Below, piece by piece: positions 13,426-57,253 of a stretch of 64,000 bases of DNA (its first letter is position 1; every line of letters starts with the position of its first letter). Origin of the DNA: a virus. The stretch is from the IMG/VR virus record IMGVR_UViG_3300024239_000011, positions 80,303-144,302 of that record; one strand, given 5' to 3'. The translations under genes and the position numbers were made by a program. The notes under the pieces were generated by a model that worked only from the letters and a program-made list of their open reading frames with translations, had not been told where the DNA came from and made no database searches.

Positions 13426-14046
13426 ATGGAAATTGAACTCAAAGAGAAACTTTCTAAACGACCACAAAATCAGAATTTTGGCGCCCGTGCAGGACGTGAT
13501 TATGGCTTGAAGGTTGCTGCTGAACATCGGGCTGCTTATGCCCTGTCTCCGAAACATTGTACCGAATGCGACTCGGAACTCCCGTATGAACAACGCGACT
13601 GCAAATTTTGCTCTCGGTCATGTGCCGCCTCGCACAACAACAAAGAACGCAATCGACCAAAACGCGAAGCCATCTGTCTTCATTGTGGGAAAACTTTCTC
13701 GGCTAACCGAAAAAGCCATGGAAAGTTTTGCTCTCTTAAATGCCAAGGACAACACAAATGGGAAAATGAAACAAAACCACGTATTCAAGAAGGAAAAGTA
13801 CGTGAACGAAAAACGCTCAAGAAATTCCTCATTGAACGGGACGGACATCAATGTTCGTGCTGTGGAAACACTGAGTGGCTGGGCAAACCCATTCCCATTG
13901 AAGTAGATCACATCGACGGCAACCCAGCTAATGACATGCCTGACAATTTGCGTCTACTCTGCCCAAATTGTCATAGTATGACAGAAACCTACAAAGGTAA
14001 GAATATTGGGTCCGGTAGGGGTGCGAGAGGAATATCGCGATCCTAA
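13426..14046 (+). CDS. HNH homing endonuclease (tRNA-adjacent family)
   Basis: Cys-rich N-terminus, C-terminal EVDHIDGNPANDMPDNLRLLCPNCHS. Confidence 0.8.
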   Translation: MEIELKEKLSKRPQNQNFGARAGRDYGLKVAAEHRAAYALSPKHCTECDSELPYEQRDCKFCSRSCAASHNNKERNRPKREAICLHCGKTFSANRKSHGKFCSLKCQGQHKWENETKPRIQEGKVRERKTLKKFLIERDGHQCSCCGNTEWLGKPIPIEVDHIDGNPANDMPDNLRLLCPNCHSMTETYKGKNIGSGRGARGISRS

Positions 14047-14053
14047 AAACAAT

Positions 14054-14081
14054 GGCTGGTAGGTCGATGACCTACCAGCCA
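14054..14081. repeat. hairpin repeat copy 2
   Basis: GGCTGGTAGGTCGATGACCTACCAGCC. Confidence 0.7.
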
Positions 14082-14091
14082 CTAAACTTGG

Positions 14092-14165
14092 TGGAGCAGA
14101 GGGGGATCGAACCCCTGACCTGAAGCTTGCAAAGCTACCGCTCGTCCCAACTGAGCTACTGCCCC
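14092..14165 (-). tRNA. tRNA-Ala(TGC)
   Basis: acceptor GGGGCAG/CTGCTCC with G3:U70, D GCTC/GAGC, anticodon loop TTTGCAA, T arm GGGG-TTCGATC-CCCC, CCA. Confidence 0.7.
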
Positions 14166-14234
14166 ATAAATGACAACTCGCGTCGCCATGACCAAACTAT
14201 TTATACGAACCGCTCGGGCGGCGCAATAAGAAAA

Positions 14235-14915
14235 TTAAAAAATCTCGATTCCTATTTCCCCCAGGAATTTCGTCAACGGGCGGGATGGTACAAACAATTT
14301 TTCTCGTTTGGCCAGCAGAACTTTGCCCATGCCTTCCTGGGTACGTTTATTCACAATTTTTCGATGTTGAAATACTTGTAAAACTTCGGTCGCATCAAAC
14401 CCCATCATGGTTACTGCGATGGTGTCATGTTTAATACGAAAAACGTGTTTTTCGTCAACATGATGTTTCACTTCATCGATAACCATTCGCATCACAAGCT
14501 CCCCAATATCATACCCGAAAGCTTTAGTAAAATGGTTCATGTTGAATATAGTTAACATGCATATAGGGGTATCATTTCGCTGAAGCGACAAGAAATCAAT
14601 GAATACCTGTCGATCTTCATCAACATCAAGTGAAATCTTTTTGAAAGCATCAAAGTCTGCACGCAGGTTACCAACATCAGCCGTAACCTCTTCAACGTCA
14701 CGCACCACCCCATTAAGGTCAGAACGGGTTCGAATGGTTGCATCTAGAAGAATTTCAGCAGCTTCACGTAATACATCAATATTTTGAGCATTTTGAATAT
14801 GGTCGGCGTAGGTGGACAACGTTGCATCAAAAACTGTTGCCCGATGCTTCATCCGCCCGAGAATTTCTTCGATTTTCGAAAGGTTCTGTTCAAACCTGCC
14901 GTTATGGGACATCAA
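14235..14915 (-). CDS. degenerate GGDEF-like (nucleotide cyclase fold) protein with N-terminal coiled coil
   Basis: FGYDIGELVMRMVIDEV ... FRIKHDTIAV aligns with the YGHxxGDxxL ... RxGGDEF region but GGDE is replaced by KHDT. Confidence 0.45.
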   Translation of the reverse strand: MMSHNGRFEQNLSKIEEILGRMKHRATVFDATLSTYADHIQNAQNIDVLREAAEILLDATIRTRSDLNGVVRDVEEVTADVGNLRADFDAFKKISLDVDEDRQVFIDFLSLQRNDTPICMLTIFNMNHFTKAFGYDIGELVMRMVIDEVKHHVDEKHVFRIKHDTIAVTMMGFDATEVLQVFQHRKIVNKRTQEGMGKVLLAKREKLFVPSRPLTKFLGEIGIEIF

Positions 14916-15105
14916 TGCTCACCAAAAATAATTGTTCGTAACCTACTTAGCCGATTTTTGATATCAGGGAACGTAGGATATAACCCACCTATTGCAAGTA
15001 TAAACATATTATGGTATCTAGATAGTCGAAGAAAAAGAAGGCATAACTAAAAAAAGAGGCGCAATAATAGGGCGCCCCTTTTCACAACCAATAAAGGCGG
15101 TTTCA

Positions 15106-15807: not shown

Positions 15808-15810
15808 TTT

Positions 15811-16109: not shown

Positions 16110-16193
16110 GATGGTAGATTGGCGATCCTGAGAGGATTCGAACCCCCCTTTTCAGCATCCGACTACGGTTAAGCGGGTAGAAGCCGCCCCCGG
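16110..16193 (-). tRNA. 84-nt type II tRNA, anticodon unresolved
   Basis: acceptor GATCCTG/CAGGATC+G+CCA, T arm GGGGG-TTCGAAT-CCTCT; D stem GCCG/CGGC with 4-nt loop; anticodon arm ambiguous (possible CTTCTAC loop, anticodon TCT, or Leu/Ser type). Confidence 0.45.
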
Positions 16194-16353
16194 CTACAGG
16201 ATCAAATTTCTATACTTCCACTCCGTTATTTGGTATGGTCGAAGCCTTGGCGGCTACCGCCAAGGACATCTACTCCCAGTTGACCGGGTTTGAAGACCCC
16301 GCAGCTATTTCCGCTTTCTTCGACGGACAGCGCGTCGGTCCTGCCAACTAAAT

Positions 16354-16428: not shown

Positions 16429-16471
16429 AAATACAAAATGGGTGGGCAATGCCCACCCATTTGTTGTACTA

Positions 16472-16548: not shown

Positions 16549-16555
16549 ATAACTT

Positions 16556-16638
16556 GGTGCGGCTGAAGGGAATCGAACCCCCATTTTCAACATCCTTTAC
16601 CGTTCCACCGATTCGAAGTCGGGGCGGGTTACAACCGC
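16556..16638 (-). tRNA. 83-nt tRNA-like, internal structure unresolved
   Basis: acceptor GCGGTTG/CAGCCGC+A+CCA, T arm GGGGG-TTCGATT-CCCTT, hairpin CCGA-CTTCGAA-TCGG; no clear D arm. Confidence 0.35.
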
Positions 16639-16642
16639 AGGA

Positions 16643-16716: not shown

Positions 16717-16717
16717 A

Positions 16718-16792: not shown

Positions 16793-16809
16793 GTGATTTG
16801 GTGGAGCGA

Positions 16810-17436
16810 TTACGGTCTTAATCCGCGTGTCCGTCTACCATTTCCGCGATTGCGGTATCCAAATGTAGGTGTTTGGCTATGACAATTTGGACAAAGCAAA
16901 CGAAGATTGTCAGGTTTATTATTCGACGGGTCGCCGTCAATGTGATCAAGTTGAAAAACTAACGTTTCGTTATTCCATCCCATGATCCCACATTTACTAC
17001 ATTGCTCACCATCACGTTCGGCAACGTAGCGTTTTAGTGTCGGGGACGTAGTAACCTCACCGCGCCGAATTCGTTCGTTCGTCTTTATTTTACGCAAATG
17101 TTCGGCGCGACACGACGAGGAACAAAATTTGCGGCGGCGAGACTGGGTAGTTGAAGTAATCTTAAATTTCTCATTACAATGGTGACAAACACAATGTGTT
17201 TCAGGCTCAAGTTTGAGTTTTAAAGTTTCCAAGCGTGTAGTTGCAGTTGCTCTAGCCGAGCAAGACGACGAACAATATTTGTTGGCTCTCCGCTCATATG
17301 GAATAACGGTGTTACAGCACTCACAAACTTTTGGATTTTCGTAATACTTGTTCCGATTTTGCTCAGCAATTCCTATCGCATATTTTGCCCCGATTACTCC
17401 GAAATTTTTATTTTGTGGTCGTTGCGACATACTCAT
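16810..17436 (-). CDS. HNH homing endonuclease (tRNA-adjacent family)
   Basis: multiple CxxC Zn fingers; QLDHIDGDPSNNKPDNLRLLCPNCHS. Confidence 0.8.
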   Translation of the reverse strand: MSMSQRPQNKNFGVIGAKYAIGIAEQNRNKYYENPKVCECCNTVIPYERRANKYCSSSCSARATATTRLETLKLKLEPETHCVCHHCNEKFKITSTTQSRRRKFCSSSCRAEHLRKIKTNERIRRGEVTTSPTLKRYVAERDGEQCSKCGIMGWNNETLVFQLDHIDGDPSNNKPDNLRLLCPNCHSQTPTFGYRNRGNGRRTRGLRP

Positions 17437-17702
17437 ATGCAGTCCCTCAAAATCATTGATGTGACAATTTTATTTATCACGTAACGATTTTGAGTTCCGC
17501 CTACCACAGTGCGCGTACTCAGCGCATGTCGTGAATTTGGAAACAATGGAGCCAGCAACACCGGGCACCAACCACACATACATTCCGATGTTCACAGACG
17601 CCAGCAAAGCGCAACTGATGCGTAAACTGCTGCTCAAGGCAAATCCCGATGGGAAATTTGCGGTCGCTACTGTTCGTGGCATGAAGCTGCACTTTGAGTA
17701 AA

Positions 17703-17777
17703 TGGCGCGGGTACGGAGAATCGAACTCCGACTCCTTGAGTGGCGCTCAAGTAGACACCCCAGTATCTTATACCCGC
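17703..17777 (-). tRNA. tRNA-Gly(GCC), copy 1 of perfect duplicate
   Basis: GCGGGTATAAGATACTGGGGTGTCTACTTGAGCGCCACTCAAGGAGTCGGAGTTCGATTCTCCGTACCCGCGCCA; identical to 22389..22463. Confidence 0.7.
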
Positions 17778-17855
17778 ATAGAAACGTGCGAGCCTACTGC
17801 GGTGAAGTGGCGGCTGAAGCCCACTCAACGATATAATCGTTGCCGCTTTCCTCAT

Positions 17856-17940: not shown

Positions 17941-18029
17941 TGGCACGGGTGTGAGGAATTGAACCCCTTCGGCATCCACCTGAATTTTTGTGCCACTGGG
18001 TTTGGAATCCAGCTTCAGGAAACACCCGC
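17941..18029 (-). tRNA. 89-nt long tRNA-like, anticodon unresolved
   Basis: acceptor GCGGGTG/CACCCGT (G1:U72), T arm AGGGG-TTCAATT-CCTCA, CCA; internal arms could not be resolved by hand. Confidence 0.4.
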
Positions 18030-18033
18030 GTAA

Positions 18034-18109: not shown

Positions 18110-18110
18110 A

Positions 18111-18614: not shown

Positions 18615-18706
18615 TGGCTCCCACTTGAGGTTTCGAACCTCACCCCGCATCGCTGCGAGACTTCCGGTTAACAGCCGGATACCTTCACCAAGCCGGTCCA
18701 GTGGGA
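18615..18706 (-). tRNA. type II (long variable arm) tRNA, anticodon GTT (Asn codons), G73
   Basis: acceptor TCCCACT/AGTGGGA, D ACC/GGT, perfect anticodon arm TCCGG-CTGTTAA-CCGGA, variable arm with CGCA/TGCG hairpin, T arm TGAGG-TTCGAAA-CCTCA, CCA. Confidence 0.55.
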
Positions 18707-19272
18707 ATGAATTCATTCTGAAGTTTCTGCCATCGCTTACGGACGGCGGCTTCAGAAACACCTAACATATCTCCAATTTGCATAAATGTTTTTGTCTTAC
18801 GCAATTCGATAAGATCAACCGTTTCCCAGCGAACTTTTCCATGCAGCGAACCGGCGCATTTCCACGAACAAGTCAAATTGGTTGTTGGTTTTGATTGCCC
18901 GCAAACAGGGCATTCATCGGTGGGAACACTGGTACGGTGGGTTTTGTACTCTGCAAATTGTTCATTAAATGATGGTGCTGTGCTAGGAACCTCAATCAAC
19001 CCATCGTGTATCTCAGCATGGCAACGATTGCATACCAAAACACACTTCCGTAATTCTTCAACAATAGCCGACCACGATTGCGGGTTCGCACGAATTGCAC
19101 CAAAATGAAATTCTTTTTGTGACGGATCACGGTGGTGGAAATCAAACGCCCGCAACGAGCGACTGTAACCACAAACACAACATTCTCCACCAAAGGCATC
19201 AACCATTCTTTGCTTAGTACGTTCGCGCCAGCGCCGAACTGCTTCACTTCCTCTTGACATCCAACACCTCAT
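18685..19272 (-). CDS. HNH endonuclease with C-terminal sigma-70 region-4-like HTH
   Basis: CxxC pairs, H..H, C-terminal TFMQIGDMLGVSEAAVRKRW. Confidence 0.7.
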   Translation of the reverse strand: MRCWMSRGSEAVRRWRERTKQRMVDAFGGECCVCGYSRSLRAFDFHHRDPSQKEFHFGAIRANPQSWSAIVEELRKCVLVCNRCHAEIHDGLIEVPSTAPSFNEQFAEYKTHRTSVPTDECPVCGQSKPTTNLTCSWKCAGSLHGKVRWETVDLIELRKTKTFMQIGDMLGVSEAAVRKRWQKLQNEFIPTGPAW

Positions 19273-19320
19273 AGTCGAACCGGACTATGAGTATTTAGCA
19301 AACCTTGTTAATTATGGATA

Positions 19321-19410
19321 TGGAGGACACGGTGGGAATTGAACCCACGAGGGGCTTTCGCCCGTGCGATTAAAAGTCGCATGTTCTCAACCAACAAGAA
19401 CGTCGTGTCC
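19321..19410 (-). tRNA. type II tRNA, anticodon TTT (Lys codons), U73
   Basis: acceptor GGACACG/CGTGTCC, D GTTC/GAAC, anticodon arm TGCGA-CTTTTAA-TCGCA, variable arm GGGC-GAAA-GCCC, T arm GTGGG-TTCAATT-CCCAC. Confidence 0.55.
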
Positions 19411-19418: not shown

Positions 19419-19504
19419 TGGAGGACCGGTGGGGAATCGAACCCCTTATCGCACGGTTTAAAAGACCGCTGCCCCCACCAGGGTGGCTGTAACGTTCCCG
19501 GTCC
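19419..19504 (-). tRNA. 86-nt tRNA-like with enlarged D region; hairpin loop CTTTTAA
   Basis: acceptor GGACCGG/CCGGTCC+T+CCA, hairpin GCGGT-CTTTTAA-ACCGT, T GGGG-TTCGATT-CCCC; ~28 nt between acceptor and this hairpin. Confidence 0.4.
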
Positions 19505-19569: not shown

Positions 19570-19654
19570 TGGAGCGGGTAGGGGGAATCGAACCCCTTTC
19601 CAGTTAAGGGCTTGCTTGGAAGGCAAGTGAGCAATCCATTGCTCGACTACCCGC
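19570..19654 (-). tRNA. type II tRNA, anticodon TCC (Gly codons), U73
   Basis: acceptor GCGGGTA/TACCCGC, D GAGC/GCTC, anticodon arm CTTGC-CTTCCAA-GCAAG, variable hairpin CCCTT/AAGGG, T-loop TTCGATT. Confidence 0.5.
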
Positions 19655-19666: not shown

Positions 19667-19754
19667 TGGAGACGCGAGTGGGAGTCGAACCCACCTGACC
19701 TTTCGGTACAAACGGTTTTGCAGACCGCCGACTAAACCGCTCATCCATCGCGCC
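19667..19754 (-). tRNA. type II tRNA, anticodon GCA (Cys codons), U73
   Basis: acceptor GGCGCGA/TCGCGTC (G2:U71), anticodon arm GCGGT-CTGCAAA-ACCGT, variable ACC-GAAA-GGT, T arm GTGGG-TTCGACT-CCCAC. Confidence 0.5.
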
Positions 19755-20585: not shown

Positions 20586-20670
20586 TGGAGAACCGTGGAG
20601 GAATCGAACCTCTTAGCCACCGGGTAAGAGCCGGTTGCGGACCCCAGTCATCGTCTTGGCGCACGGTTCA
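20586..20670 (-). tRNA. 85-nt tRNA with possible 8/4 acceptor/T-stem architecture, anticodon CTT (Lys codons)
   Basis: 8-bp acceptor GAACCGTG/CACGGTTC, 4-bp T stem GAGG/CCTC with TTCGATT loop, anticodon arm ACCGG-CTCTTAC-CCGGT, T73+CCA; enlarged D region. Confidence 0.45.
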
Positions 20671-20676: not shown

Positions 20677-20751
20677 TGGTGGAGCGTATCGGAATCTCAC
20701 CGATCAGGCTAGAATCTTGCAAGGATTCTCCGGGTACATAGCCCACGCCCC
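20677..20751 (-). tRNA. tRNA-Ala(TGC) with non-canonical T-loop
   Basis: acceptor GGGGCGT/ACGCTCC (G3:U70), anticodon arm GAATC-CTTGCAA-GATTC, T arm ATCGG-TGAGATT-CCGAT. Confidence 0.65.
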
Positions 20752-20757: not shown

Positions 20758-20834
20758 TGGTAGGTCTTCCGCGAATCGAACGCGGTCAATAACACCATGT
20801 CACGGTGTTGCCTTCCCATCTGGCTCAAGACCTA
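20758..20834 (-). tRNA. tRNA-Val(GAC)
   Basis: acceptor AGGTCTT/AAGACCT, anticodon arm ACACC-GTGACAT-GGTGT, T arm CCGCG-TTCGATT-CGCGG; overlaps 3' end of HNH ORF. Confidence 0.65.
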
Positions 20835-21423
20835 TTGAACGTTTGGTAGTTGGTGTCGTGAGCCAATCACCAAAAACACCAGCCACCCTAATTTCACGTA
20901 TCTTATCGACTAACAAAAACCACGCTTCATATGGCATGTCGCGGCGTAATAAATTGCACCTAATACAACAAGCAACCACATTATCCATTGTGTGACCAAT
21001 GCTATTATTCTTTCGGTCAACTGTCATGGTTATTGTCGTCTCACCACAATACGAACAACCATTTGCAATCAATTCATCAACGAACTTAATAGAAAGGTCG
21101 TTTTCCAATCCTCGTTTGCGGTCAGACTTGCGCGAATCTTCAACAATGTATTTTGCACGATTGATACCGTGTTGACGTTCAAATTTTATTTTTGCTTGTT
21201 TCTTCTCTTCACGCCGTTTTCGGGAATCTAAGGTTTCGTATGTTCTGGCACGTGATTGATCACATTTCCGGCAATACACCTTCGGGTATCTTCTTCCTTT
21301 TACGGTTCGCATACCAAATGAAGTGATCGGCAATACTTCTCCGCAACTCGAACATATTTTAGTCTCACACATTTTTAACCTCTTTTGGTACTCGGGGATT
21401 ATGTATTTATCACCGAGTACCAA
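20800..21423 (-). CDS. HNH homing endonuclease
   Basis: CxxC Zn fingers; VDRKNNSIGHTMDNVVACCIRCN HNH core; C-terminus runs into tRNA-Val. Confidence 0.65.
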   Translation of the reverse strand: MVLGDKYIIPEYQKRLKMCETKICSSCGEVLPITSFGMRTVKGRRYPKVYCRKCDQSRARTYETLDSRKRREEKKQAKIKFERQHGINRAKYIVEDSRKSDRKRGLENDLSIKFVDELIANGCSYCGETTITMTVDRKNNSIGHTMDNVVACCIRCNLLRRDMPYEAWFLLVDKIREIRVAGVFGDWLTTPTTKRSIGLEPDGKATP

Positions 21424-21636: not shown

Positions 21637-22425
21637 ATGCTAAATACTTGCATGGAACCAAACATTATAAATGAAATACGGTCGAAGCGACGTGATGGAT
21701 ATAGTCTTCAGTGGCTATCTCGTGAATATAATGTCGCAGTTGGCACCATACGATACCATACTAAGGGCATCCTTGTTAATAAAACCCCACATACATTGAT
21801 ACAAGAGAAGCCAATCATCGTACCAATACCATCCGAGGATTGGGCATATTTTTGGGGATTTTATACTGGGGATGGTTGTTTAACGCAAATGACAAGAAGT
21901 TATTCAATAAGTATTTCCTGTGACATCAAGTATGAATATTTGATTGCGAATTATAGTGCTATTCTTTCTGATTTATTCAGACGCGAAGCAAAAATTTACA
22001 AAACCAAACGGAATTGTGCAATCGTTCGTATTCACGGGGTTGACCTACCCAACATTCTTCAGCTACCACCGGGGGCGAAAACTGAAGAGTATAAAGTCCC
22101 AGAGTGGATATTTTCAGATAGAAAATACGCAGTTCAATTTCTAAAAGGTCTTATAGAAACTGACGGAAGTTGTTACCGACGAGATATAACACAATATGGT
22201 GTCATGTTCACTCAAAAAAACAAAACGATATTCGACTATTACAGCACCGCAATGTCTCTTTGTGATTACTCATTTACCAAGAGTAAAGGTAATGCTTACC
22301 AAGCACAGACATCAACCAAAAACGGTGCAAAGGAAATGATTGATGAATTAAGGCTTCATCAAAAGATGCGAACATATTCAAGAAAAAATGGCGCGGGTAC
22401 GGAGAATCGAACTCCGACTCCTTGA
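21637..22425 (+). CDS. LAGLIDADG homing endonuclease
   Basis: two LAGLIDADG motifs (FWGFYTGDGCL and FLKGLIETDGS); AT-rich; 3' end overlaps the duplicated tRNA-Gly(GCC) copy. Confidence 0.8.
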   Translation: MLNTCMEPNIINEIRSKRRDGYSLQWLSREYNVAVGTIRYHTKGILVNKTPHTLIQEKPIIVPIPSEDWAYFWGFYTGDGCLTQMTRSYSISISCDIKYEYLIANYSAILSDLFRREAKIYKTKRNCAIVRIHGVDLPNILQLPPGAKTEEYKVPEWIFSDRKYAVQFLKGLIETDGSCYRRDITQYGVMFTQKNKTIFDYYSTAMSLCDYSFTKSKGNAYQAQTSTKNGAKEMIDELRLHQKMRTYSRKNGAGTENRTPTP

Positions 22426-22463
22426 GTGGCGCTCAAGTAGACACCCCAGTATCTTATACCCGC
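22389..22463 (-). tRNA. tRNA-Gly(GCC), copy 2 of perfect duplicate
   Basis: 75/75 identical to 17703..17777. Confidence 0.7.
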
Positions 22464-22481
22464 ATTGTGTTGGTGTAGAAA

Positions 22482-22556
22482 TGGTGGAGCATATCGGAAT
22501 CAAACCGATCAGGCTATCATACTGCCAGCATGATCCGGGTACTCAGCCCATGCCCC
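22482..22556 (-). tRNA. tRNA-Ala(GGC)
   Basis: acceptor GGGGCAT/ATGCTCC (G3:U70), anticodon arm TCATG-CTGGCAG-TATGA, T arm ATCGG-TTTGATT-CCGAT. Confidence 0.6.
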
Positions 22557-22561: not shown

Positions 22562-22637
22562 TGGTGCCACCACCCGGATTCGAACCGGGAACCTTCACTT
22601 TACCAAAGTGCTGCTCTACCATTGGAGCTATAGCGGC
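22562..22637 (-). tRNA. tRNA-Thr(GGT)
   Basis: D GCTC/GAGC, anticodon loop TTGGTAA, T arm CCCGG-TTCGAAT-CCGGG, CCA. Confidence 0.7.
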
Positions 22638-22647: not shown

Positions 22648-23232
22648 TTAATGTATACGCAGCCCGCGTGATTTTCTCCCATTCCCCCTGTTTTTTCCTT
22701 TGGACGTGGGCATCAGAGAATGGCAATTCGGGCAAAGTAAGCGAATATTTTCAGGTTTATTATTCGAAGCATCTCCATTGACATGATCTAGTTCAAGGCT
22801 CAATGGTTGACCGTGCCAATCGGAAATGCCGCATTTTTCACAACAATTACCTCGAATTTTTCTAAGGTAATTTTTCAGAGTTTTCCTTTCTGAAACTAAT
22901 CCATTTTCTATTTTTGGTAATGTTTCTTGAGTGAACTGGTAATCTCGCTGGCATTTATGAGAACAATATGTCCTTATTGCACGATTTTCACCCGTAATTT
23001 CATTTCCGCAATTAAGACAAAAGCATTTCTGAAAATTTTCAGCAGCGTAAAATAGACCAGAGCACCGTTGACAGCAGAACCTATTCTTTCGCATATCATA
23101 CGGTAATGGCTGTTTGCAGTATTCACAACACGATGGACTTATCTCATAAGTCCGTATTTTTTCTTGTTTTATGAGTTTAGCTTTCTCTGCCCATGCTTTT
23201 CCGCCGAGTTTCCCTGCTTCTGATTTGTTCAT
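22648..23232 (-). CDS. HNH homing endonuclease (tRNA-adjacent family)
   Basis: multiple CxxC; ELDHVNGDASNNKPENIRLLCPNCHS; AT-rich. Confidence 0.8.
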   Translation of the reverse strand: MNKSEAGKLGGKAWAEKAKLIKQEKIRTYEISPSCCEYCKQPLPYDMRKNRFCCQRCSGLFYAAENFQKCFCLNCGNEITGENRAIRTYCSHKCQRDYQFTQETLPKIENGLVSERKTLKNYLRKIRGNCCEKCGISDWHGQPLSLELDHVNGDASNNKPENIRLLCPNCHSLMPTSKGKNRGNGRKSRGLRIH

Positions 23233-23320
23233 TATGTCCTCTACGTATAGTATCCTACGACACTATTTATTTCGGAGAATATAGTGGATATAAACCAGTC
23301 AAGGGCTGGGAGAATATATT

Positions 23321-23409
23321 TGGAGAACCGGGTGGGAATCGAACCCACGACGGGCTTTCGCCAGCAGTTTAAGAGACTGTTCCTACCAACCAACAGTAGG
23401 CTCCGGTTC
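23321..23409 (-). tRNA. type II tRNA, anticodon CTT (Lys codons), U73
   Basis: acceptor GAACCGG/CCGGTTC, D CCTA/TAGG, anticodon loop CTCTTAA, variable GGC-GAAA-GCC, T arm GTGGG-TTCGATT-CCCAC; paralog of 19321. Confidence 0.55.
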
Positions 23410-23597: not shown

Positions 23598-23673
23598 TGG
23601 TTGCGGGGGTGGGATTTGCACACCACGACCTCTTGGGTATGAACCAAGTAAGCTACTGCTGCTCTACCCCGCA
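23598..23673 (-). tRNA. tRNA-Met(CAT), copy 1 of 80-nt near-perfect duplicate
   Basis: acceptor TGCGGGG/CCCCGCA, anticodon arm CTTGG-TTCATAC-CCAAG, CCA; copy at 23986. Confidence 0.6.
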
Positions 23674-23704
23674 ATATTACATTGGTCAATCCGCCGTCCC
23701 AAAA

Positions 23705-23785: not shown

Positions 23786-23860
23786 TTGGTGGAGAATATC
23801 GGAATCAAACCGATCAGGCTATCTGCGTGCAAGGCAAATCCGGGTACTCAGCCCATTCCC
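23786..23860 (-). tRNA. tRNA-Ala(TGC)
   Basis: acceptor GGGGAAT/ATTCTCC (G3:U70), anticodon loop CTTGCAC, T arm ATCGG-TTTGATT-CCGAT; paralog of 22482 and 20677. Confidence 0.6.
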
Positions 23861-23868
23861 CGTTGTAT

Positions 23869-23985: not shown

Positions 23986-24061
23986 TGGTTGCGGGGGTGG
24001 GATTTGCACACCACGACCTCTTGGGTATGAACCAAGCAAGCTACTGCTGCTCTACCCCGCA
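23986..24061 (-). tRNA. tRNA-Met(CAT), copy 2 of duplicate
   Basis: one mismatch relative to 23598..23673. Confidence 0.6.
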
Positions 24062-24066
24062 ATAAT

Positions 24067-24142
24067 TGGTGCCAGGGGTCGGGATCGAACCGACATCTGC
24101 GGTTTTTCAAACCGCCGCATGGACCACCACTGCCACCCTGGC
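24067..24142 (-). tRNA. tRNA-Phe(GAA)
   Basis: acceptor GCCAGGG/CCCTGGC, anticodon arm GCGGT-TTGAAAA-ACCGC, T arm GTCGG-TTCGATC-CCGAC, CCA. Confidence 0.7.
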
Positions 24143-24166
24143 ATGGATTACTTGGTGATCTTGTAT

Positions 24167-24249: not shown

Positions 24250-24326
24250 TGGTTGCGGATGTCGGTGCTGCCCCGACTCTTCACAGCTTATGAGGCTGGC
24301 GACTTATCTTCCTTGTCCTATCCGCA
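24250..24326 (-). tRNA. tRNA-Met/Ile2(CAT)
   Basis: acceptor TGCGGAT/ATCCGCA, anticodon loop CTCATAA, T arm GTCGG-GGCAGCA-CCGAC. Confidence 0.55.
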
Positions 24327-24331
24327 TTAAT

Positions 24332-24407
24332 TGGCACCAAGGGTCGGTATCGAACCGACATGTCTGGTTTTTCAGACCAGTGCATGAACCATCACTGCCA
24401 CCTTGGT
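24332..24407 (-). tRNA. tRNA-Phe(GAA)
   Basis: acceptor ACCAAGG/CCTTGGT, anticodon arm CTGGT-CTGAAAA-ACCAG, T arm GTCGG-TTCGATA-CCGAC. Confidence 0.6.
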
Positions 24408-24446
24408 ATAAATACTACTAACTAAGCTTAATTTCAGGTAATCGTC

Positions 24447-24980
24447 ATGTTCATCCAAAACAAATACACCGCCGCGTATTTTCGCATCATTGAGAAAGCC
24501 AGATCAGAAGCACGAAGCAAATGTGACGGCTATTTTGAACGCCATCACATCACACCGCGATCTTTTGGTGGGACAAACAAGAAAGACAATCTTGTACTTC
24601 TGAAACCACGAGAGCATTTCGTATGCCATCTTCTCTTAACTAAGATGGTTTGTGCCAATTCACCGGAATGGCACAAAATGCTTCATAGCTTTATGCTTAT
24701 GAAAGGTCAAAACAAATTCCAAGACCGTTACATCAATAACCGTCTATACGATAAACTCAAAGAGGCGTATGCCGAATATCGACGCTCCGTTACCATTGGA
24801 GTTCCGCATACCGCAGAACATCGGGCGAAGATCGCACAAGCAATGACGGGACGCACGATGTCAGAAGAAGCCAAGAAAGCGATTTCCGAAAAAGCTGCCA
24901 AGCGCCCACGCAAACCGTTTAGCGACGAATATCGCGCAAAGATGTCTGCGATAATGAAAGAACGTCGGAAAACGGGTTGA
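24447..24980 (+). CDS. HNH homing endonuclease with NUMOD3 repeats
   Basis: ERHHITPRSFGGTNKKDNLVLL...EH HNH core, then repeated G.PHTAEHRAKI / GRTMSEEAKKAIS motifs. Confidence 0.75.
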   Translation: MFIQNKYTAAYFRIIEKARSEARSKCDGYFERHHITPRSFGGTNKKDNLVLLKPREHFVCHLLLTKMVCANSPEWHKMLHSFMLMKGQNKFQDRYINNRLYDKLKEAYAEYRRSVTIGVPHTAEHRAKIAQAMTGRTMSEEAKKAISEKAAKRPRKPFSDEYRAKMSAIMKERRKTG

Positions 24981-25299: not shown

Positions 25300-26121
25300 T
25301 TATTGATGCGCCACTACCTTCGAAATCGCTTCTTTGATTATACTCAAATCACCGTAAGCGATTTTTACCTTAGTTCTAATGTACTCCATTTTCTCGTGAT
25401 CCTGTTGCATGACCAGATGGTTCTTCGGATCAAGATATAAGTCAAAATCTGGCAAATAAAAATCTGGAAAATATAGATGTTTAATAGCTCGGTTGTCATG
25501 CCATTCTATGGGTTTCGGGCGTATCCATTTGATTCCCATGGTATCAAGCAATGATGCAATTTCCAGTTCCCACGTACTCTGCAATTTTATTACTTTGTTT
25601 TGGTAGCGATTGAAATAACAAATGACCTTCGCCCCTAATGTTGGCTTGCTATTATTTCTCAATGCGACGATACAAGCCATTCCCCCACATGTCTTTCGTT
25701 GTTTTAATGCATCCTTGCCACAAATAGGACAGTGTTTAGCAGGGGTTTGTTGCTTTGAACACCCGATAGCATCCAATGCAGCATGCCACGACCCGAAAAC
25801 ACTCACGTAATGACAATAATGCGGATATTTCAACCCGTCAAACATAGTGCTGGTTGGTATTGTCCCGGTTTCATCTGCATATCGTCGTAATTCTGATAGC
25901 AAAACATCATTGGAATGTTTTGTTCCTTTATTATTACCAAACTTAACAATAGGCAGACCAGCTTCGGTCAATGCACTATTCCAATTTCCGAACACATTCT
26001 TATAAGTGTTGGAACCAAATAGATAACCCTCAGGCTTGGGGCGAAAATCCCTTTCACGGGGCACCCTTCCAAATTCCTTGTAAAAACGTTGCAACTCTGC
26101 TAACATGATCTCTCTAGACAT
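25300..26121 (-). CDS. homing-endonuclease-like protein: N-terminal helix-turn-helix repeats plus C-terminal PD-(D/E)xK-like nuclease motif
   Basis: repeated F..G.W..ALTEAGL-type repeats; C-terminal W.LE...L...GIKW....YFPDFYLPDFDLYLD. Confidence 0.55.
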   Translation of the reverse strand: MSREIMLAELQRFYKEFGRVPRERDFRPKPEGYLFGSNTYKNVFGNWNSALTEAGLPIVKFGNNKGTKHSNDVLLSELRRYADETGTIPTSTMFDGLKYPHYCHYVSVFGSWHAALDAIGCSKQQTPAKHCPICGKDALKQRKTCGGMACIVALRNNSKPTLGAKVICYFNRYQNKVIKLQSTWELEIASLLDTMGIKWIRPKPIEWHDNRAIKHLYFPDFYLPDFDLYLDPKNHLVMQQDHEKMEYIRTKVKIAYGDLSIIKEAISKVVAHQ

Positions 26122-36234: not shown

Positions 36235-36334
36235 CAACCGAGCGATATAGCGTTCTGCGATTTGATCATGAAAAAGCCCCTTAATGGTCCAAACCTGCAT
36301 TAGTATTTAGCAAGTTCTCCCATTAAGGGGCTAT

Positions 36335-36678: not shown

Positions 36679-37272
36679 TTACCATCGTGTCGGTAACTGA
36701 GCTTCACCCGCAATCAAGGACGGCTCATAGATAATATCCTTCGGGTCATGATCTTTGTACCCAAACCCACGATACTTTTTCAACCGATCAGCCTTGACAT
36801 CACCACCCGGCTTGGATGGACGCAACGTCATAGTCTTATTGTCCCAGAAGAAGTTATCGGTACATATCACTACGCGATTAAACACGTCAAGCGCACCTTG
36901 ACACACCGTCATATCAAACGACTCAAAAATACTCATGGGCGAATCGAAAGTACGTTCGACCAACTGTATACTAACATAGTGATCTTCTCCGATCAGAATG
37001 CTTTCATAGCTAGTGGCGTTGGTACTATTGTAGGCAACTTCCTCACCACCCGCATATTCAGACAAATAATCATTGAATTTTGCATGATCGTTGCTCGACC
37101 GTGTGTAGCAGTCCACATCACCATCTAGAAGATTACGACCAGTTAGAAGCCGAGAAACAAATCCCCCGGCAATCATAACCTCGACCCCACTATCACTGAT
37201 GAACTTGAAAAGTTCTTTAAATGGATAATCATGGGGGTATTTCTGGGTTAGACTGAACAACGGTATGATCAT
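36679..37272 (-). CDS. short paralog of the tRNA-NTase/poly(A) polymerase head domain
   Basis: AGGFVSRLLTG-x-DGDVDCY and FESFDMTVCQGALDV motifs. Confidence 0.55.
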   Translation of the reverse strand: MIIPLFSLTQKYPHDYPFKELFKFISDSGVEVMIAGGFVSRLLTGRNLLDGDVDCYTRSSNDHAKFNDYLSEYAGGEEVAYNSTNATSYESILIGEDHYVSIQLVERTFDSPMSIFESFDMTVCQGALDVFNRVVICTDNFFWDNKTMTLRPSKPGGDVKADRLKKYRGFGYKDHDPKDIIYEPSLIAGEAQLPTRW

Positions 37273-37728: not shown

Positions 37729-38043
37729 TTACCGAATCTTCAGGTAAAGATTCTCACCGTCTCGGTGCTGATCCAACTGCTGCTTGGTGGGTTCGTAGAA
37801 ATCCATCAGCGCAGGAACAGTCAGTCCGAGGTCGTAGGCGTACCGAAGAAGCTGTCGAATCTGCTCCTGGCTGAACATGCCTTCATTGGCAAAATGATCG
37901 GTCATCAATTCAACATGAAATGCAGCTTCTTCATTGCCGCGTAGCTTTGCCATGTCGAACACGTTGCGTATGAGATCAAGCAACGGCTCAATCATTTCAT
38001 CACGAATTTTCATTAGCTTACCTTCTGTGGAATCGTAGTTCAT
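37729..38043 (-). CDS. hypothetical protein
   Basis: 104-aa ORF overlapping the start of the HNH gene. Confidence 0.4.
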   Translation of the reverse strand: MNYDSTEGKLMKIRDEMIEPLLDLIRNVFDMAKLRGNEEAAFHVELMTDHFANEGMFSQEQIRQLLRYAYDLGLTVPALMDFYEPTKQQLDQHRDGENLYLKIR

Positions 38044-38650
38044 CTACCTCGATATCAATGTCGTACTTTGCCCACAGCAAGGTCAAGAAATCAGTGGCTT
38101 CTTGCTCACTAAATTCCGACGAAAAAGCAGTCATGTTCAATGCGCGGAATTGCACGCAGCGTCGCAGGTCTTCTTTGATTTGAATGATGTGGGGATGGTT
38201 CTTATATACTTCGCCAATCCGTTGGCGGATGGCATTCAACTTGATGAATTTTGTTCGTTCTGGTGGTAGAACAACCTTATCGGCTTTCTTCCCATTACAG
38301 TTGGCACACATGGGTTGCCCATTCGCCAATGTGTCGTTCCCGCCTTTTGATTTCGGAACGATGTGATCCAACGTCATCAGATCACGACCACCGTTCCGCA
38401 TCCCATACAGGTTCATAATCGAAAGAGTACAGTCCTTGGGCGTATCCAACCATATTTCAACGAAATGATGTCCTTCCAGCCCGCAAGAAACGCATTTGGT
38501 GCCTTTCTCAACAAACAACTGAAGGGTACGAGATATCCGCAGACGATTACCACTGGGTAGCCAAATGCTGCGTTTGCCATCGGCACGTGCCTGGGTCAGC
38601 AACGGCATAATCTCAGCAATAGGATAACTCGCTAAGGGCTGTTCGGACAT
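38018..38650 (-). CDS. HNH nuclease with Zn finger
   Basis: CVSCGLEGHH ... DHIVPKSKGGNDTLANGQPMCANCNGKKADK. Confidence 0.7.
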   Translation of the reverse strand: MSEQPLASYPIAEIMPLLTQARADGKRSIWLPSGNRLRISRTLQLFVEKGTKCVSCGLEGHHFVEIWLDTPKDCTLSIMNLYGMRNGGRDLMTLDHIVPKSKGGNDTLANGQPMCANCNGKKADKVVLPPERTKFIKLNAIRQRIGEVYKNHPHIIQIKEDLRRCVQFRALNMTAFSSEFSEQEATDFLTLLWAKYDIDIEVDELRFHRR

Positions 38651-39179: not shown

Positions 39180-39278
39180 TTGACACCTATTTATGCTGTT
39201 TAGATATTATGGTCAATAAACATTTGTCCATGGTCAACAACCCGGCTACACTTTCCCAATCTTTCAGGAGTCCCAACC

Positions 39279-43283: not shown

Positions 43284-43315
43284 AATATATTCTATTTATC
43301 ATCGCAGTCAAAATA

Positions 43316-51884: not shown

Positions 51885-52021
51885 CGTTACCCCAAGAATG
51901 CTCGGATTTTAGGAGAGTATTATGGGAACCTATGCGGTTGTCAAAAAGTTTCGCACGTCCCGAGGCAGTTGGTAGACGTGTTTTGCTAAATACGCATGTC
52001 CCTCTTCCAATCAGGTGGAAC

Positions 52022-52534
52022 ATGCGCAAATCAAAGTACACAAAAGAACTTCTTGAACAACACGTTGCAACGGCAATTTCATACTCGACATTGATCCAGT
52101 CATTTGGGTTAAAACCAACCGGCGGGACGTATGTTTACTTTCAAAAACTGGTACGCCAGCACGAAATCAACGTCGATCATTTTAAAGGTATGGGATGGGC
52201 GAAGGATTTAACCAAAGATAATAATACGACGATCAAAAGAATAGCTGAGCGCAATTCTTATACTGACGAGCAGGTACTTTGTGATAAATCCCCGGCGTCG
52301 ATCCGCCCAACCCGTCTCCGTGATCTGATGATCAAGAACGGCATCCCCTATGTTTGCTCAGAGAGCGACTGTGATGTTGGGGCGGAATGGAAAGGGAAAC
52401 CGATCACCCTTCATATCGACCACGTGAACGGCATAAGCAATGATAACCGCCTAGAGAATTTGCGGTTCCTTTGCCCAAATTGCCACCAACAAACACCAAC
52501 ATGGGGTCGGCACAAAGAAAAAGAGCCGGGGTGA
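52022..52534 (+). CDS. HNH homing endonuclease (tRNA-adjacent family)
   Basis: HIDHVNGISNDNRLENLRFLCPNCH; AGGTGG RBS before internal ATG. Confidence 0.75.
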   Translation: MRKSKYTKELLEQHVATAISYSTLIQSFGLKPTGGTYVYFQKLVRQHEINVDHFKGMGWAKDLTKDNNTTIKRIAERNSYTDEQVLCDKSPASIRPTRLRDLMIKNGIPYVCSESDCDVGAEWKGKPITLHIDHVNGISNDNRLENLRFLCPNCHQQTPTWGRHKEKEPG

Positions 52535-52656: not shown

Positions 52657-52714
52657 ATACACACCTATTTATATTTTTCGTGCTTGGTAGTCAACATATT
52701 TCTTCAAGATTTTA

Positions 52715-53867: not shown

Positions 53868-53873
53868 GTTTCC

Positions 53874-54968: not shown

Positions 54969-55492
54969 AGACCAGCCCCCACGATGTCCCGGATCGCCTG
55001 AAGGTGATCAACCGGCTTGGGTTTGTTCTCTCGCTCGAAGGCTTCCATGAACAAAGTGGGATAGGTCTTGGAGTAATGCTTCTGACCCGAGTACAACATC
55101 GGAAGAAGCGACTTCCCAGTGCCGCCCTGTTGCGACAGGATAAAGGGAGTGTTCAGCTTCATTGCCTGCTCGCGAAGCTTGTCAACCCACTCAGCCATCG
55201 CGGCATACATCGACTTGGTTTCAGCGCGAGCAGTCTCACTCATACTGAGGCAAGCATCCGGGTCGTAATAGAAAATCTTGTTCGGCATCAGCGCACCCAA
55301 TTGGGTCTTCGGCTCACGACTCTTTGCCACGAAAATGTTCATTTCGCCGCGCCGAATACCGCCAGCAAGTTTGTCGATACGGTCAAACCCGGAGACGACC
55401 CACGGGGTGTCCTTAACCGAATCATTACCTTCAGTAACGTAAATCTCTTCCATCGGGCGAACCCTCCCTAAAACGTCAACCACATTCCCCAT
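54965..55492 (-). CDS. hypothetical protein; C-terminal DHLQAIRDIVG motif
   Basis: 175-aa ORF. Confidence 0.45.
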   Translation of the reverse strand: MGNVVDVLGRVRPMEEIYVTEGNDSVKDTPWVVSGFDRIDKLAGGIRRGEMNIFVAKSREPKTQLGALMPNKIFYYDPDACLSMSETARAETKSMYAAMAEWVDKLREQAMKLNTPFILSQQGGTGKSLLPMLYSGQKHYSKTYPTLFMEAFERENKPKPVDHLQAIRDIVGAGL

Positions 55493-55935
55493 TCCATGTC
55501 GGCGGGGTCAATTTTATTCAGCAAACGTTGAACTGCCGGGATGAACTTGTCCTTCGCTTCCTGCGGCATGTCATGAATTTTGCAGAAATTCTTCCCGTAC
55601 TGGCTGATCTCGAACCGGTGCCCAACGATCAGTGCAATGGTTTGACACTGCATGGGATCACCATGCCAAGCTTTCGGGTTGTGAAGGACGGTCGTTTCGA
55701 CCCCCATTGCATGTTGGTTCTCGTCTGGGATTAATTCGTATTCAAGATCATGCAGGCTGCGGTTATCTTCGATTTCGCGCCACATAGGGGCGCCACACTC
55801 GCCGCAGAATTTAGACGGGCTTTCCGGGTGAGTGCATCCACGTTCTTGTCCGTGGTTAAGGTAGGCGTCGTAGATCACGTCAGCAGGTATCTTGTACCCG
55901 ACGAAGACGGACGCATGGCATGTGTGTCCCATCAT
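55468..55935 (-). CDS. hypothetical Cys/His-rich protein
   Basis: 155-aa ORF. Confidence 0.45.
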   Translation of the reverse strand: MMGHTCHASVFVGYKIPADVIYDAYLNHGQERGCTHPESPSKFCGECGAPMWREIEDNRSLHDLEYELIPDENQHAMGVETTVLHNPKAWHGDPMQCQTIALIVGHRFEISQYGKNFCKIHDMPQEAKDKFIPAVQRLLNKIDPADMEWGMWLTF

Positions 55936-56405
55936 AACCCCCCAACGATGTCACGAATAGCTTGAAGATAATCAGGTTTGTTCCGCGCCTGGATGAACTC
56001 TTGAATATCGCCTTCGGTTGGATTGATGAAAAGCTGTGTGTTTGGATACCGAGTTCCAATCCGACGCATCAACGCACCGAGCTTTCTCGGTAGCCATGTG
56101 TGTTTGGTTTCTACCTACCGTACTTGTCCCGCCGCGCGGTCGAGAGAAGCAGTGCCTATACAGGGTCGGTCAAGAGGTACACAAACCTCTTAATTACTTT
56201 TGAACGACGGTGAAATACGAACCATCCACCCGGTTGCCAAAAGCGTTCAGATGGACTTCAGTATTTCCGTCCTTGAGGATCAACGTCTCAGATTCACCGT
56301 TATCCTCGCTGGTAATCACCACATCATCCTTCAGAAAAGGACGGAGGCTGTTGGCCACATCTTCAAGACGTTCGGCAATGGACATCATGATCCTCGTTGT
56401 ATTTG

Positions 56406-56491
56406 TGGTGCGGGTGAGAGGATTCGAACCTCCATGGATTGCTCCGCTGCGACCTAAACGCAGTGTGTCTAGCCAATTTCACCACACCCGC
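56406..56491 (-). tRNA. tRNA-Leu(TAG)
   Basis: acceptor GCGGGTG/CACCCGC, A73, anticodon arm CTGCG-TTTAGGT-CGCAG, long variable arm, T arm GAGG-TTCGAAT-CCTC. Confidence 0.85.
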
Positions 56492-56519
56492 ATCTTTACC
56501 ACGTTTACCAACAAGGGGT

Positions 56520-56603
56520 TGGTGCGAGAGACGAGACTCGAACTCGTAAGCCTTGCGGCAGCAGTGTTTGAGACTGCCGTGTATGCCGTTCCACCACTCT
56601 CGC
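56520..56603 (-). tRNA. tRNA-Leu(CAA)
   Basis: acceptor GCGAGAG/CTCTCGC, A73, anticodon arm GCAGT-CTCAAAC-ACTGC, long variable arm, T arm ACGAG-TTCGAGT-CTCGT. Confidence 0.85.
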
Positions 56604-56617
56604 TCCGTGGTGAATAT

Positions 56618-57253
56618 TTATGTATCAGAGCTTTCCAGTAGCAGCAACAATTTTTTGGCCCGCTTGTAATTTCCCCCTTTCGGGTCTAGTCCAACCTCAA
56701 TCAACGCTTGGCGAATGCTATCTGTGCGAGCAAGAGCGGTAATTAAGTCTTGGTCAGGTACCTTAATTCGACCAGTGTTTCTACGTCCCTTAAATGTCGG
56801 TGTTTGGCTATGGCAGTTGGGACACAAAAATCGTAAATTTTCCAAACGATTATCACGTCGATTGCCGTTTATATGGTCGAGTTCGAGAATCAGGGGTTTG
56901 TTATTCCATGACCCGTCCAAACCACATTCAGTACATTTGTATGGTAATAGACGTTCAGTCAAAATCAACTTTTTCAATCGTTCTGTTGTAATCTCAGACC
57001 CTTCTATAAAAATATTAGACGGCTCTACTTTGCGTTTTACTCTTCCGTCTGATAAAACGGTTTTGTGTTTATTCCAAGGTGTTTGACCTTTGAAATGATC
57101 ATAAGCCATTTTTCCGTCTTCATGCGCCTTGCGTAATCCTGCTGCATTTTTTTCTTTAACAGCAGGGCACGCATTATAGCTAGTTGTACAGCATTGGCGC
57201 CCGTTTCTAAGAACATTTGTTGCTTCATTTCCACAACCATATTCACATAACAT
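56618..57253 (-). CDS. HNH homing endonuclease (tRNA-adjacent family)
   Basis: ELDHINGNRRDNRLENLRFLCPNCHS. Confidence 0.8.
   Translation of the reverse strand: MLCEYGCGNEATNVLRNGRQCCTTSYNACPAVKEKNAAGLRKAHEDGKMAYDHFKGQTPWNKHKTVLSDGRVKRKVEPSNIFIEGSEITTERLKKLILTERLLPYKCTECGLDGSWNNKPLILELDHINGNRRDNRLENLRFLCPNCHSQTPTFKGRRNTGRIKVPDQDLITALARTDSIRQALIEVGLDPKGGNYKRAKKLLLLLESSDT

Follow-up and report, generated by a model that had tools for sequence, protein, structure and literature searches.

In a 64,000-nucleotide (nt) stretch of viral DNA (positions 80,303 to 144,302 of the IMG/VR virus record IMGVR_UViG_3300024239_000011; "the window" hereafter, numbered from its first letter), five open reading frames (ORFs), designated HNH1 to HNH5, are interpreted here, with a probability of about 0.7, as putative free-standing homing endonuclease genes of the widespread HNH clade of the phage T5 endonuclease F-TflIV, living at transfer RNA (tRNA) genes. 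The clade would combine an McrA-like beta-beta-alpha-metal core and a CxxC...CPNCH zinc site with interchangeable DNA-binding modules. An initial annotation of this DNA had proposed selfish homing-type HNH nucleases tied to tRNA genes, and this view is upheld by the kinship with F-TflIV, by presence/absence polymorphism in relatives, by the family-wide adjacency to tRNA genes and by the insertion scars at HNH1 and HNH2. All five ORFs are open at the coordinates listed below and are translated without internal stops (lengths in amino acids, aa; the evidence for each is given last):

13426..14046, plus strand: HNH1, 206 aa, two FCS-like zinc fingers and a C-terminal HNH domain; family profile, E 9e-73
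16810..17436, minus strand: HNH2, 208 aa, two zinc fingers and an HNH domain; profile, Pfam, AlphaFold2 (AF2) model
22648..23232, minus strand: HNH3, 194 aa, two zinc fingers and an HNH domain; profile, alignment
52022..52534, plus strand: HNH4, 170 aa, an N-terminal helix-turn-helix-like module (..GLKPTGGTY..) and an HNH domain; profile, Pfam, alignment
56618..57253, minus strand: HNH5, 211 aa, a Cys-rich N-terminus, an HNH domain and a C-terminal ..GLDPKGGNYKR.. module; profile, Pfam, alignment

The search with the family profile against the six translated frames of the window returned exactly five ORFs, the same ones that had been recognized initially by their common HNH core (E 9e-73 to 1.6e-18; next best match, E 0.12). 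The five-protein alignment contains 18 invariant columns, and the common core reads (L/V/I)DH(I/V)(D/N)G..(N/D)N..(D/E)N(L/I)R(L/F)LCPNCH(S/Q). Residues D161, H162, N174, N181 and H183 (HNH1 numbering), comprising the catalytic DH, Asn and terminal His, are invariant in all five proteins, as are the zinc-site cysteines C143, C146, C179 and C182, the first pair of which takes the form CxxxxC in HNH4. Beyond the core three architectures are displayed, those of HNH1-3, of HNH4 and of HNH5: the zinc fingers of HNH1-3 are two CxxC..(K/R)(F/Y)CSxxC units ahead of the HNH domain, and the helix-turn-helix-like module, N-terminal in HNH4, appears as the same module at the C-terminus of HNH5. Multi-cysteine N-termini, initially ascribed to every copy, are thus characteristic of HNH1-3 (two CxxC..FCSxxC fingers) and HNH5, and HNH4 is devoid of them. 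HNH1-3 are mutually 37-44% identical, HNH4 and HNH5 share only the core of ~60 aa (23-31%), and in a neighbour-joining tree without support values HNH1-3 each paired with a different foreign homologue. Being no closer to one another than to homologues from other genomes, HNH1-3 are therefore not recent intragenomic copies; recent duplication of these three within the genome was considered and ruled out by the 37-44% identity together with the grouping with foreign homologues. For the five copies as a whole the sequences make old or independent arrivals, or ancient splits, more likely than recent duplication. Consequently, the five do not make up a single tight set of paralogues, as the three architectures also show.

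The structure model, made for HNH2 alone with AF2 (mean predicted local distance difference test score, pLDDT, 87), revealed strands 162-165 and 178-181 followed by a helix 183-186, i.e., the beta-beta-alpha-metal fold. Its C-terminal domain was aligned by Foldseek with the HNH domains of McrA and of CBASS Cap5 with a probability of 0.99, and McrA was also the best profile match in the PDB. The McrA-type domains (EcoKMcrA, 6ghc; ScoMcrA, 5zmm) are the best match in both sequence and fold and possess the same CxxC...DH...N...CxxCH layout, but they belong to modification-dependent restriction enzymes with other N-terminal domains, and these enzymes are not mobile and have no link to tRNAs. A weak similarity to FCS (E 0.03-0.1) and BED zinc fingers was noted for the N-terminal fingers of the family. 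In the test for a GIY-YIG domain, only HNH families were assigned to the five proteins by Pfam. The ORFs sit between tRNAs and other genes, and Rfam found no intron at their loci, its single group I intron being that at 36395-36598. The family, counted in clusters defined at 50% identity, comprises 2,828 clusters at E<=1e-30, mostly of ~200 aa, and 20,736 at E<=1e-10.

The characterized relative, F-TflIV (hegA, T5.075), is described as a site-specific endonuclease of the T5 tRNA region in the work cited in PMC2330249. BLASTP matched its core to HNH5 (47% identity over 94 aa, E 7e-24), HNH2 (46% over 54 aa, E 3e-16) and HNH4 (E 9e-12). Like the window genes, F-TflIV is free-standing, lies in a phage tRNA cluster, just after tRNA genes, and carries the same HNH core; its T5-like orthologue leaves a 10-nt tRNA-Leu remnant, the same scar as is seen at HNH2. 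Unlike them, it has its own C-terminal helix-turn-helix region (IPR000792 in the T5 record), lacks the two FCS-like fingers of HNH1-3 and displays no identity outside the core. Since the similarity is confined to the core and the domain architecture differs, HNH1-5 are core relatives of F-TflIV and not its orthologues.

Every copy lies close to a tRNA gene of the minus strand. The limit of ~40 nt given in the initial annotation is borne out by gaps of 42, 17, 10, 35 and 14 nt for HNH1 to HNH5, respectively:

14089-14165, minus strand: tRNA-Ala(tgc), 3' end 42 nt from the HNH1 stop, convergent; Rfam, 60.4 bits
16718-16792, minus strand: tRNA-Val(tac), 17 nt downstream of the HNH2 stop, same strand; ARAGORN (weak by Rfam, 27.3 bits against a threshold of 29)
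22562-22637, minus strand: tRNA-Thr(ggt), 10 nt downstream of the HNH3 stop, same strand; 59.3 bits
52570-52656, minus strand: tRNA-Leu(gag), 3' end 35 nt from the HNH4 stop, convergent; 48.4 bits
56520-56603, minus strand: tRNA-Leu(caa), 14 nt downstream of the HNH5 stop, same strand; 51.4 bits

In all five cases it is the stop-codon end that faces the tRNA: HNH2, HNH3 and HNH5 are co-directional with it and upstream of its 5' end, and HNH1 and HNH4 converge on its 3' end. The stop end lay no more than 45 nt from a tRNA in 5/5 family ORFs and in 8/109 other ORFs of the window (Fisher p=9e-6).

The same linkage was observed throughout the family. At 80 IMG/VR loci, chosen by protein similarity alone, a tRNA was present within 3 kb in 76 cases (569 tRNAs in 475 kb, a mean of 7.1 per 5.9 kb). 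At these loci one end was no further than 100 nt from a tRNA in 81% of the family ORFs and in 36% of the other ORFs, and the stop end lay within 15 nt of a tRNA in 40% against 14%; the neighbouring tRNA was nearly always on the same strand. A recurrent subclass of the relatives consists of ORFs without a stop of their own, which run through the acceptor stem and end at the TAG formed by U8-A9-G10 of the tRNA. No enrichment of CCA was seen downstream of family stop codons. In annotated phages, the full-length homologues inspected adjoin tRNAs: gp465 of Atu_ph07 ends 3 nt from a convergent tRNA-Phe, XbC2_384 lies 76 nt after a tRNA-Thr, and the homologue in DSL-LC03 is flanked by tRNA-Leu and tRNA-Thr. 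The 13 control loci (nine of LamG relatives and four of a different HNH family) contained 0 tRNAs in 126 kb; the second control family, that of the gene 38018-38650, has 3 database homologues and 4 IMG/VR loci, hence the small size of this control.

A further 80 loci were taken from bacterial genomes (Cyanobacteria, Chloroflexota, Saccharibacteria and other groups of the Candidate Phyla Radiation, Eremiobacterota, actinomycetes and Clostridia). Here, a tRNA was found within 3 kb at 75/80 loci, at a mean of 1.6 per 5.6-kb locus, and the distance to it was 100 nt or less for 59/84 family ORFs. Most often this tRNA is tRNA-Thr(UGU), which shares the strand of the ORF in 33/36 cases; the remaining neighbours are Gln(CUG), Leu or Thr(CGU). 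Relative to the single tRNA-Thr(UGU), the gene is situated on the same strand either 0-60 nt upstream or 36-110 nt downstream. The flanks sampled were of housekeeping and not of prophage type (an aconitase-family gene, pheS, a nucleotidyl transferase).

Presence/absence polymorphism in relatives places the insertion in the tRNA gene itself, both in T4-like and in T5-like phages. The T4-like phage Pu-Krd-SF5 carries a family member (XPN51915.1) just before its tRNA cluster, and 6 nt separate the stop of this gene from a tRNA. With HNH5 the protein shares 44% identity in a stretch of 118 aa that comprises the core and the following GGNYKR module; it differs from HNH5 in having an N-terminal HNH domain and no Cys-rich N-terminus. 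Comparison with fHoEco02 (95%-identical region) demonstrated that the HNH gene stands precisely in place of nt 9-72 of tRNA-Gln, of which nt 1-8 are kept, and that homology to fHoEco02 resumes at tRNA-Leu. This gene is carried by just 42/1077 matching records (~4%). In the T5-like phage EC105 the F-TflIV orthologue replaces a 63-aa ORF and the tRNA-Leu(UAA) of Kenya-K37. The 3'-terminal 10 nt of the tRNA, ACCCCTACCA, survive immediately behind the stop codon; the orthologue is present in 23/425 records.

Comparable traces are found in the window at HNH1 and HNH2:

13309..13362, strand not assigned: left copy of a 54-nt direct repeat, a terminator hairpin and the last 9 nt of tRNA-Ala (GCTCCACCA, minus strand)
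14044..14097, strand not assigned: right copy of the repeat, 85% identical to the left one and running into the intact tRNA-Ala
16799..16808, minus strand: 10-nt fragment of a tRNA 3' end, CGCTCCACCA, between the HNH2 stop (1 nt away) and tRNA-Val (6 nt away)

The repeat flanking HNH1 gave an alignment score of 69 against a maximum of 27 for shuffled sequences, and the left copy is followed by a 6/7 match to the 5' acceptor strand of tRNA-Ala at 13363-13369. This arrangement has the appearance of a tRNA-Ala stripped of its interior. The fragment CGCTCCACCA after HNH2 agrees in every base with the 3'-terminal 10 nt of the tRNA-Ala-like gene 20677-20751, and its geometry is that of the EC105 scar. 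As tRNA-end 9-mers occur ~70 times across the window, close to the ~47 estimated for chance, only the position-specific matches at 13354-13362 and 16799-16808 were counted. The sequence ATATTCACCA after the HNH5 stop was also considered as a tRNA remnant and rejected, being part of the ATAAATA motif 11 nt before tRNA-Leu.

Considering these data, the following course of events may be proposed. The nuclease would recognize and cut a conserved tRNA-gene sequence in a genome or allele without the gene, and recombinational repair from the endonuclease-carrying copy would transfer the gene together with its flanks. The insertion would replace or truncate a tRNA gene in a tight cluster, as demonstrated for the relatives and suggested by the scars for HNH1 and HNH2; where a tRNA in a packed cluster is replaced, the stop of the ORF comes to abut the next tRNA or a 3' remnant of 9-10 nt.

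Each nuclease gene would, moreover, be expressed on its own. A TAAATA motif, followed by a Shine-Dalgarno sequence, was found 33-40 nt upstream of the ATG in 5/5 genes:

13390..13395, plus strand: TAAATA of HNH1, 36 nt upstream of the ATG
17471..17476, minus strand: TAAATA of HNH2, 40 nt upstream of the ATG
23264..23269, minus strand: TAAATA of HNH3, 37 nt upstream of the ATG
51987..51992, plus strand: TAAATA of HNH4 (TTTGCTAAATAC variant), 35 nt upstream of the start 52022
57281..57286, minus strand: TAAATA of HNH5 (TTTGCTAAATAC variant), 33 nt upstream of the ATG

For HNH4 the start at 52022 was preferred over that at 51932 because of the motif 35 nt upstream of the former. The motif also precedes many other ORFs of the window by 24-48 nt and several tRNA 5' ends by 7-11 nt, in the latter case often as (T)ATAAATA; the stop codon of HNH5 lies inside such an ATAAATA, 11 nt before tRNA-Leu(caa). 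Examples are 954-959, 14198-14203, 39188-39193, 43293-43298 and 52666-52671, with a spacing of 38 nt before the tRNA-Ala at 14165. The T4 late promoter, TATAAATA, resembles this motif, and we infer from the sequence that TAAATA is the T4-late-type promoter of the window phage, each nuclease gene possessing one of its own. An 11-nt variant, TTGCTAAATAC, occurs seven times (first TAAATA base, on the motif strand, at 19297, 21641, 26158, 36309, 36648, 51987 and 57286). Five of the seven lie 25-40 nt upstream of annotated or inferred starts of nuclease-type ORFs, namely 18685-19272, 21637-22425, 25300-26121, HNH4 and HNH5, and those at 36309 and 36648 flank the group I intron 36395-36598. HNH2, HNH3 and HNH5 would probably be co-transcribed with their downstream tRNAs, as proposed for the phage T4 endonuclease SegB.

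The surrounding array also contains duplicated tRNAs and further nuclease genes. The initial annotation had pointed to exact or near-exact duplicates of tRNA-Gly(GCC) and tRNA-Met(CAT), and both pairs were recovered (100% over 80 nt and one mismatch, respectively), although the default ARAGORN run lists neither tRNA; of the other nuclease genes it mentioned, at least five unrelated ones were found in the array:

17700-17779, minus strand: tRNA-Gly(GCC) copy 1, exact 80-nt duplicate, 265 nt upstream of HNH2
22386-22465, minus strand: tRNA-Gly(GCC) copy 2, 100% identical to copy 1, overlapped by the stop end of the LAGLIDADG ORF
23598-23676, minus strand: tRNA-Met(CAT) copy 1, Rfam and pairwise comparison
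23986-24064, minus strand: tRNA-Met(CAT) copy 2, 99% identical to copy 1, one mismatch
18685-19272, minus strand: unrelated HNH endonuclease (phrog_35854), in the array
20800-21423, minus strand: endonuclease VII-like/HNH gene, in the array
21637-22425, plus strand: LAGLIDADG-type endonuclease (PF14528), stop end overlapping tRNA-Gly(GCC) copy 2
24447-24980, plus strand: HNH+NUMOD3 homing endonuclease, stop 2 nt from the 3' end of tRNA-Asn
25300-26121, minus strand: gene with HNH_repeat and endonuclease domains, at the array edge
38018-38650, strand not given: unrelated HNH gene, confirmed as a nuclease gene

The identity between the two tRNA-Gly(GCC) copies does not continue beyond the tRNA borders; the identical stretches are exactly tRNA-sized, and a longer block in which a nuclease gene was duplicated as well was not found in the window. 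The duplicates may be compatible with the nuclease-triggered conversion between paralogous tRNAs suggested in the initial annotation, for which SegB-driven tRNA amplification is a published precedent (PMC13096335). Besides, a segmental repeat, 24057-24144 and 24322-24409 (82% identical), comprising tRNA-Phe and the 5' start of tRNA-Met, was noted beside the HNH+NUMOD3 gene, together with a diverged tRNA-Met-like remnant between the two tRNA-Phe genes (24250-24331) and a further tRNA-like remnant at ~20586-20670.

Several other explanations of the tRNA linkage have to be weighed against homing. That it is a by-product of tRNA density, any gene in an array of ~45 tRNAs in 16 kb being apt to adjoin one, appears scarcely credible. 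Within the dense array the excess is indeed weak (3/3 vs 6/21, p=0.04), but outside it, where tRNAs are sparse, the ratio is 2/2 vs 1/69 (p=0.001), the control loci were free of tRNAs, and the bacterial members lie beside near-lone tRNAs, so that array density cannot explain the linkage. Rather improbable, too, is a permissive landing zone in which any mobile nuclease accumulates at redundant tRNAs without recognizing tRNA genes. The presence of the unrelated nuclease genes in the same array agrees with it, as does the fact that HNH genes are the most widespread coding sequences in tRNA arrays generally (PMC5966550). It fits poorly with a linkage which is family-specific and kept at single, presumably essential tRNAs in bacterial core regions, with junctions that fall repeatedly at particular points of the tRNA (behind nt 8, or 9-10 nt short of the 3' end), and with the lack of nearby tRNAs in a different HNH family, of which 4 loci only were available.

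Domestication of the nucleases to the benefit of the phage, either by excluding co-infecting relatives or by amplifying and turning over tRNAs against tRNA-targeting host defences, is regarded by us as unlikely; it would make the genes more than purely selfish elements. A precedent exists in SegB, which amplifies tRNA-Tyr and thereby allows escape from Septu (PMC13096335). Such a role would suit the occurrence, beside nuclease genes of the window, of exactly or nearly exactly duplicated tRNAs and of [Phe-Met] segmental repeats, as well as the intactness of the five ORFs, with catalytic residues conserved despite deep divergence; at the same time, none of the duplicated blocks includes a family gene, the identical stretches do not exceed a tRNA in size, and domestication is compatible with homing rather than exclusive of it. 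Finally, it seems highly improbable that the proteins act on RNA, processing or cleaving the tRNAs beside which they are encoded. The tight and often same-strand linkage would be in keeping with this, and so would the weak FCS-likeness of the fingers, as some FCS fingers bind RNA. Nevertheless, the catalytic domain has the fold of McrA-type DNA nucleases, the characterized relative F-TflIV is a DNA endonuclease, the polymorphic replacement of tRNA genes is the behaviour of a mobile element, and HNH1 and HNH4 are oriented towards their tRNA from the opposite strand.

Homing at tRNA genes thus being preferred, a number of observations should be mentioned that weigh against it. The Pfam scores of the five proteins are near threshold: matches to HNH (PF01844) and HNH_3 (PF13392) lie around the curated cut-offs, most proteins narrowly pass at least one of these, and HNH3 falls under both (21.4 vs 24.8 and 20.8 vs 21.4). 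HNH3, HNH4 and HNH5 display no scar, their flank-to-flank alignments not exceeding shuffled controls, and no other flanking duplications outside annotated tRNAs were found in 160 related loci, so the HNH1-type repeat is not general. The occurrence of unrelated nuclease families in the array may mean that tRNA clusters are partly a permissive niche for any insertion. The single tRNA-Thr in a conserved bacterial housekeeping context could equally mean a domesticated function. Family members with the same tRNA neighbour tend to be more alike, a tendency confounded by shared ancestry. Lastly, no endonuclease-free allele of the window phage was found, only 99.99%-identical copies. Searches for its relatives gave no match with the neighbour protein 57384-57995, only 25-33% relatives without synteny with the LamG protein, and, with the short valyl-tRNA synthetase (ValRS) in JGI metagenomes, a best hit of 52% without synteny or family genes. 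The mobility of the five copies therefore rests on the scars and on the relatives.

Homing endonucleases of phage tRNA clusters are already known, the F-Tfl enzymes of T5 among them (PMC2330249). The T5 genes of F-TflII and F-TflI (2398-2979 and 4023-4607 of the locus) overlap pseudo-tRNA-Gln and tRNA-Ser2 by 23 and 14 nt, respectively; this ORF-into-tRNA geometry is displayed by other HNH families as well. SegB of T4, a GIY-YIG enzyme, cleaves tRNA genes at the T-psi-C box and thereby mobilizes both its own gene and the neighbouring tRNAs, and the segB mRNA loses its stop codon on processing of the downstream tRNA (PMC2330249). In a 2026 study, segB was found to be statistically tRNA-linked across phages and to drive tRNA amplification against tRNA-cleaving defence, while the role of HNH endonucleases was stated as unknown (PMC13096335). 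SegB (phages T4/T6) resembles the HNH family in being encoded between tRNA genes, and the ORFs of many HNH relatives likewise end inside the downstream tRNA; being GIY-YIG and not HNH, it is a functional analogue and not a relative, and its tRNA link was reported for phages, whereas the HNH family is linked to tRNAs in bacterial chromosomes too. HNH endonucleases were recognized as the most widespread coding sequences in tRNA arrays and proposed as generators of tRNA repertoire diversity (PMC5966550, PMC6409571). The HNH genes described by Morgado and Vicente (2018, 2019), and by Pope (2014) as cited by these authors, come from tRNA arrays of mycobacteriophages, mycobacterial plasmids and chromosomes, and their family is not defined in those reports. 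Against this background the novelty of the window copies is low, and they are ordinary and well explained; that of the family-wide pattern is moderate. As a modest new point, the near-universal tRNA linkage of this HNH clade, single bacterial tRNA-Thr genes included, was not found in the searchable literature, where absence proves nothing.

As to the genome context, the window is contained in an 869,618-bp metagenome contig (ena:ERZ27245855 k141_178484) of phage-like gene content, which would be exceptionally large if it is one phage genome. Phage-like genes of the window encode a LamG/baseplate-like protein, a glucosaminidase, an ART-PolyVal domain and DUF4376, and many ORFs have no family match. 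ARAGORN detected 39 tRNA genes, all on the minus strand; most of them were confirmed by Rfam, which added several missed by ARAGORN, and, counting tRNA-like remnants, there are ~45 tRNA or tRNA-like genes in 9.7-25.2 kb. Two further features of the window are as follows:

5228-6781, minus strand: valyl-tRNA synthetase homologue, 517 aa, with class I catalytic and anticodon-binding domains
36395-36598, minus strand: group I intron; Rfam, 52 bits (threshold 50)

The short ValRS lacks ~350 residues of the middle part of a normal ValRS, which probably correspond to the editing domain; similar proteins (40-52% identity) were found on other contigs of 0.3-1.9 Mb. The intron lies just downstream of the ORF 36679-37272 (minus strand), which matches the N-terminal part alone of a nucleotidyltransferase family, and a full-length gene matching the same family is located at 33971-35137; the ORF and the intron probably represent an intron-split gene. 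Among the tRNAs, a set of 85-94 nt with long variable arms and Cys, Asn, Lys or Gly anticodons was noted (853-946, 18615-18706, 19321-19410, 19570-19654, 19667-19754 and 23321-23409, and also 16558-16639, 17944-18030 and 19422-19499). One of them exceeds the Rfam tRNA-Sec threshold (50.6 vs 47 bits), and others are Sec-like and sub-threshold. We take these tRNAs to resemble the 'allo-tRNA' type, and they could presumably reassign codons. Three paralogous 'tRNA-Ala'-like genes (20677-20751, 22482-22556 and 23787-23861; 81-85% identical, anticodons TGC, GGC and TGC) have an unusual D arm and T loop and were called by ARAGORN and not by Rfam. A tRNA with a four-base anticodon (ctta) was called by ARAGORN at 16120-16203, without confirmation by Rfam.

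Phage tRNA arrays are now viewed as counter-measures against tRNA-destroying host defences. A broader and more tentative proposal, to which we give somewhat less than even odds, is that the HNH clade (~2,800 clusters of full-length type and ~20,000 core clusters) may constitute a dedicated tRNA-gene homing lineage of phages and bacteria, with tRNA-Thr(UGU) as the commonest site, and a main driver of the build-up and turnover of large phage tRNA arrays. If true, it would be the HNH counterpart of SegB at a much larger scale, and in giant phages its members would have colonized numerous types of tRNA gene, which they would replace, truncate and perhaps duplicate. If a second and far larger family does home to tRNA genes, much of the tRNA gain, loss and duplication in large phages may be nuclease-driven, and the same may apply to some of the variation around bacterial tRNA genes. 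The family would then also be a source of compact, zinc-finger-guided nucleases with tRNA-gene specificity.

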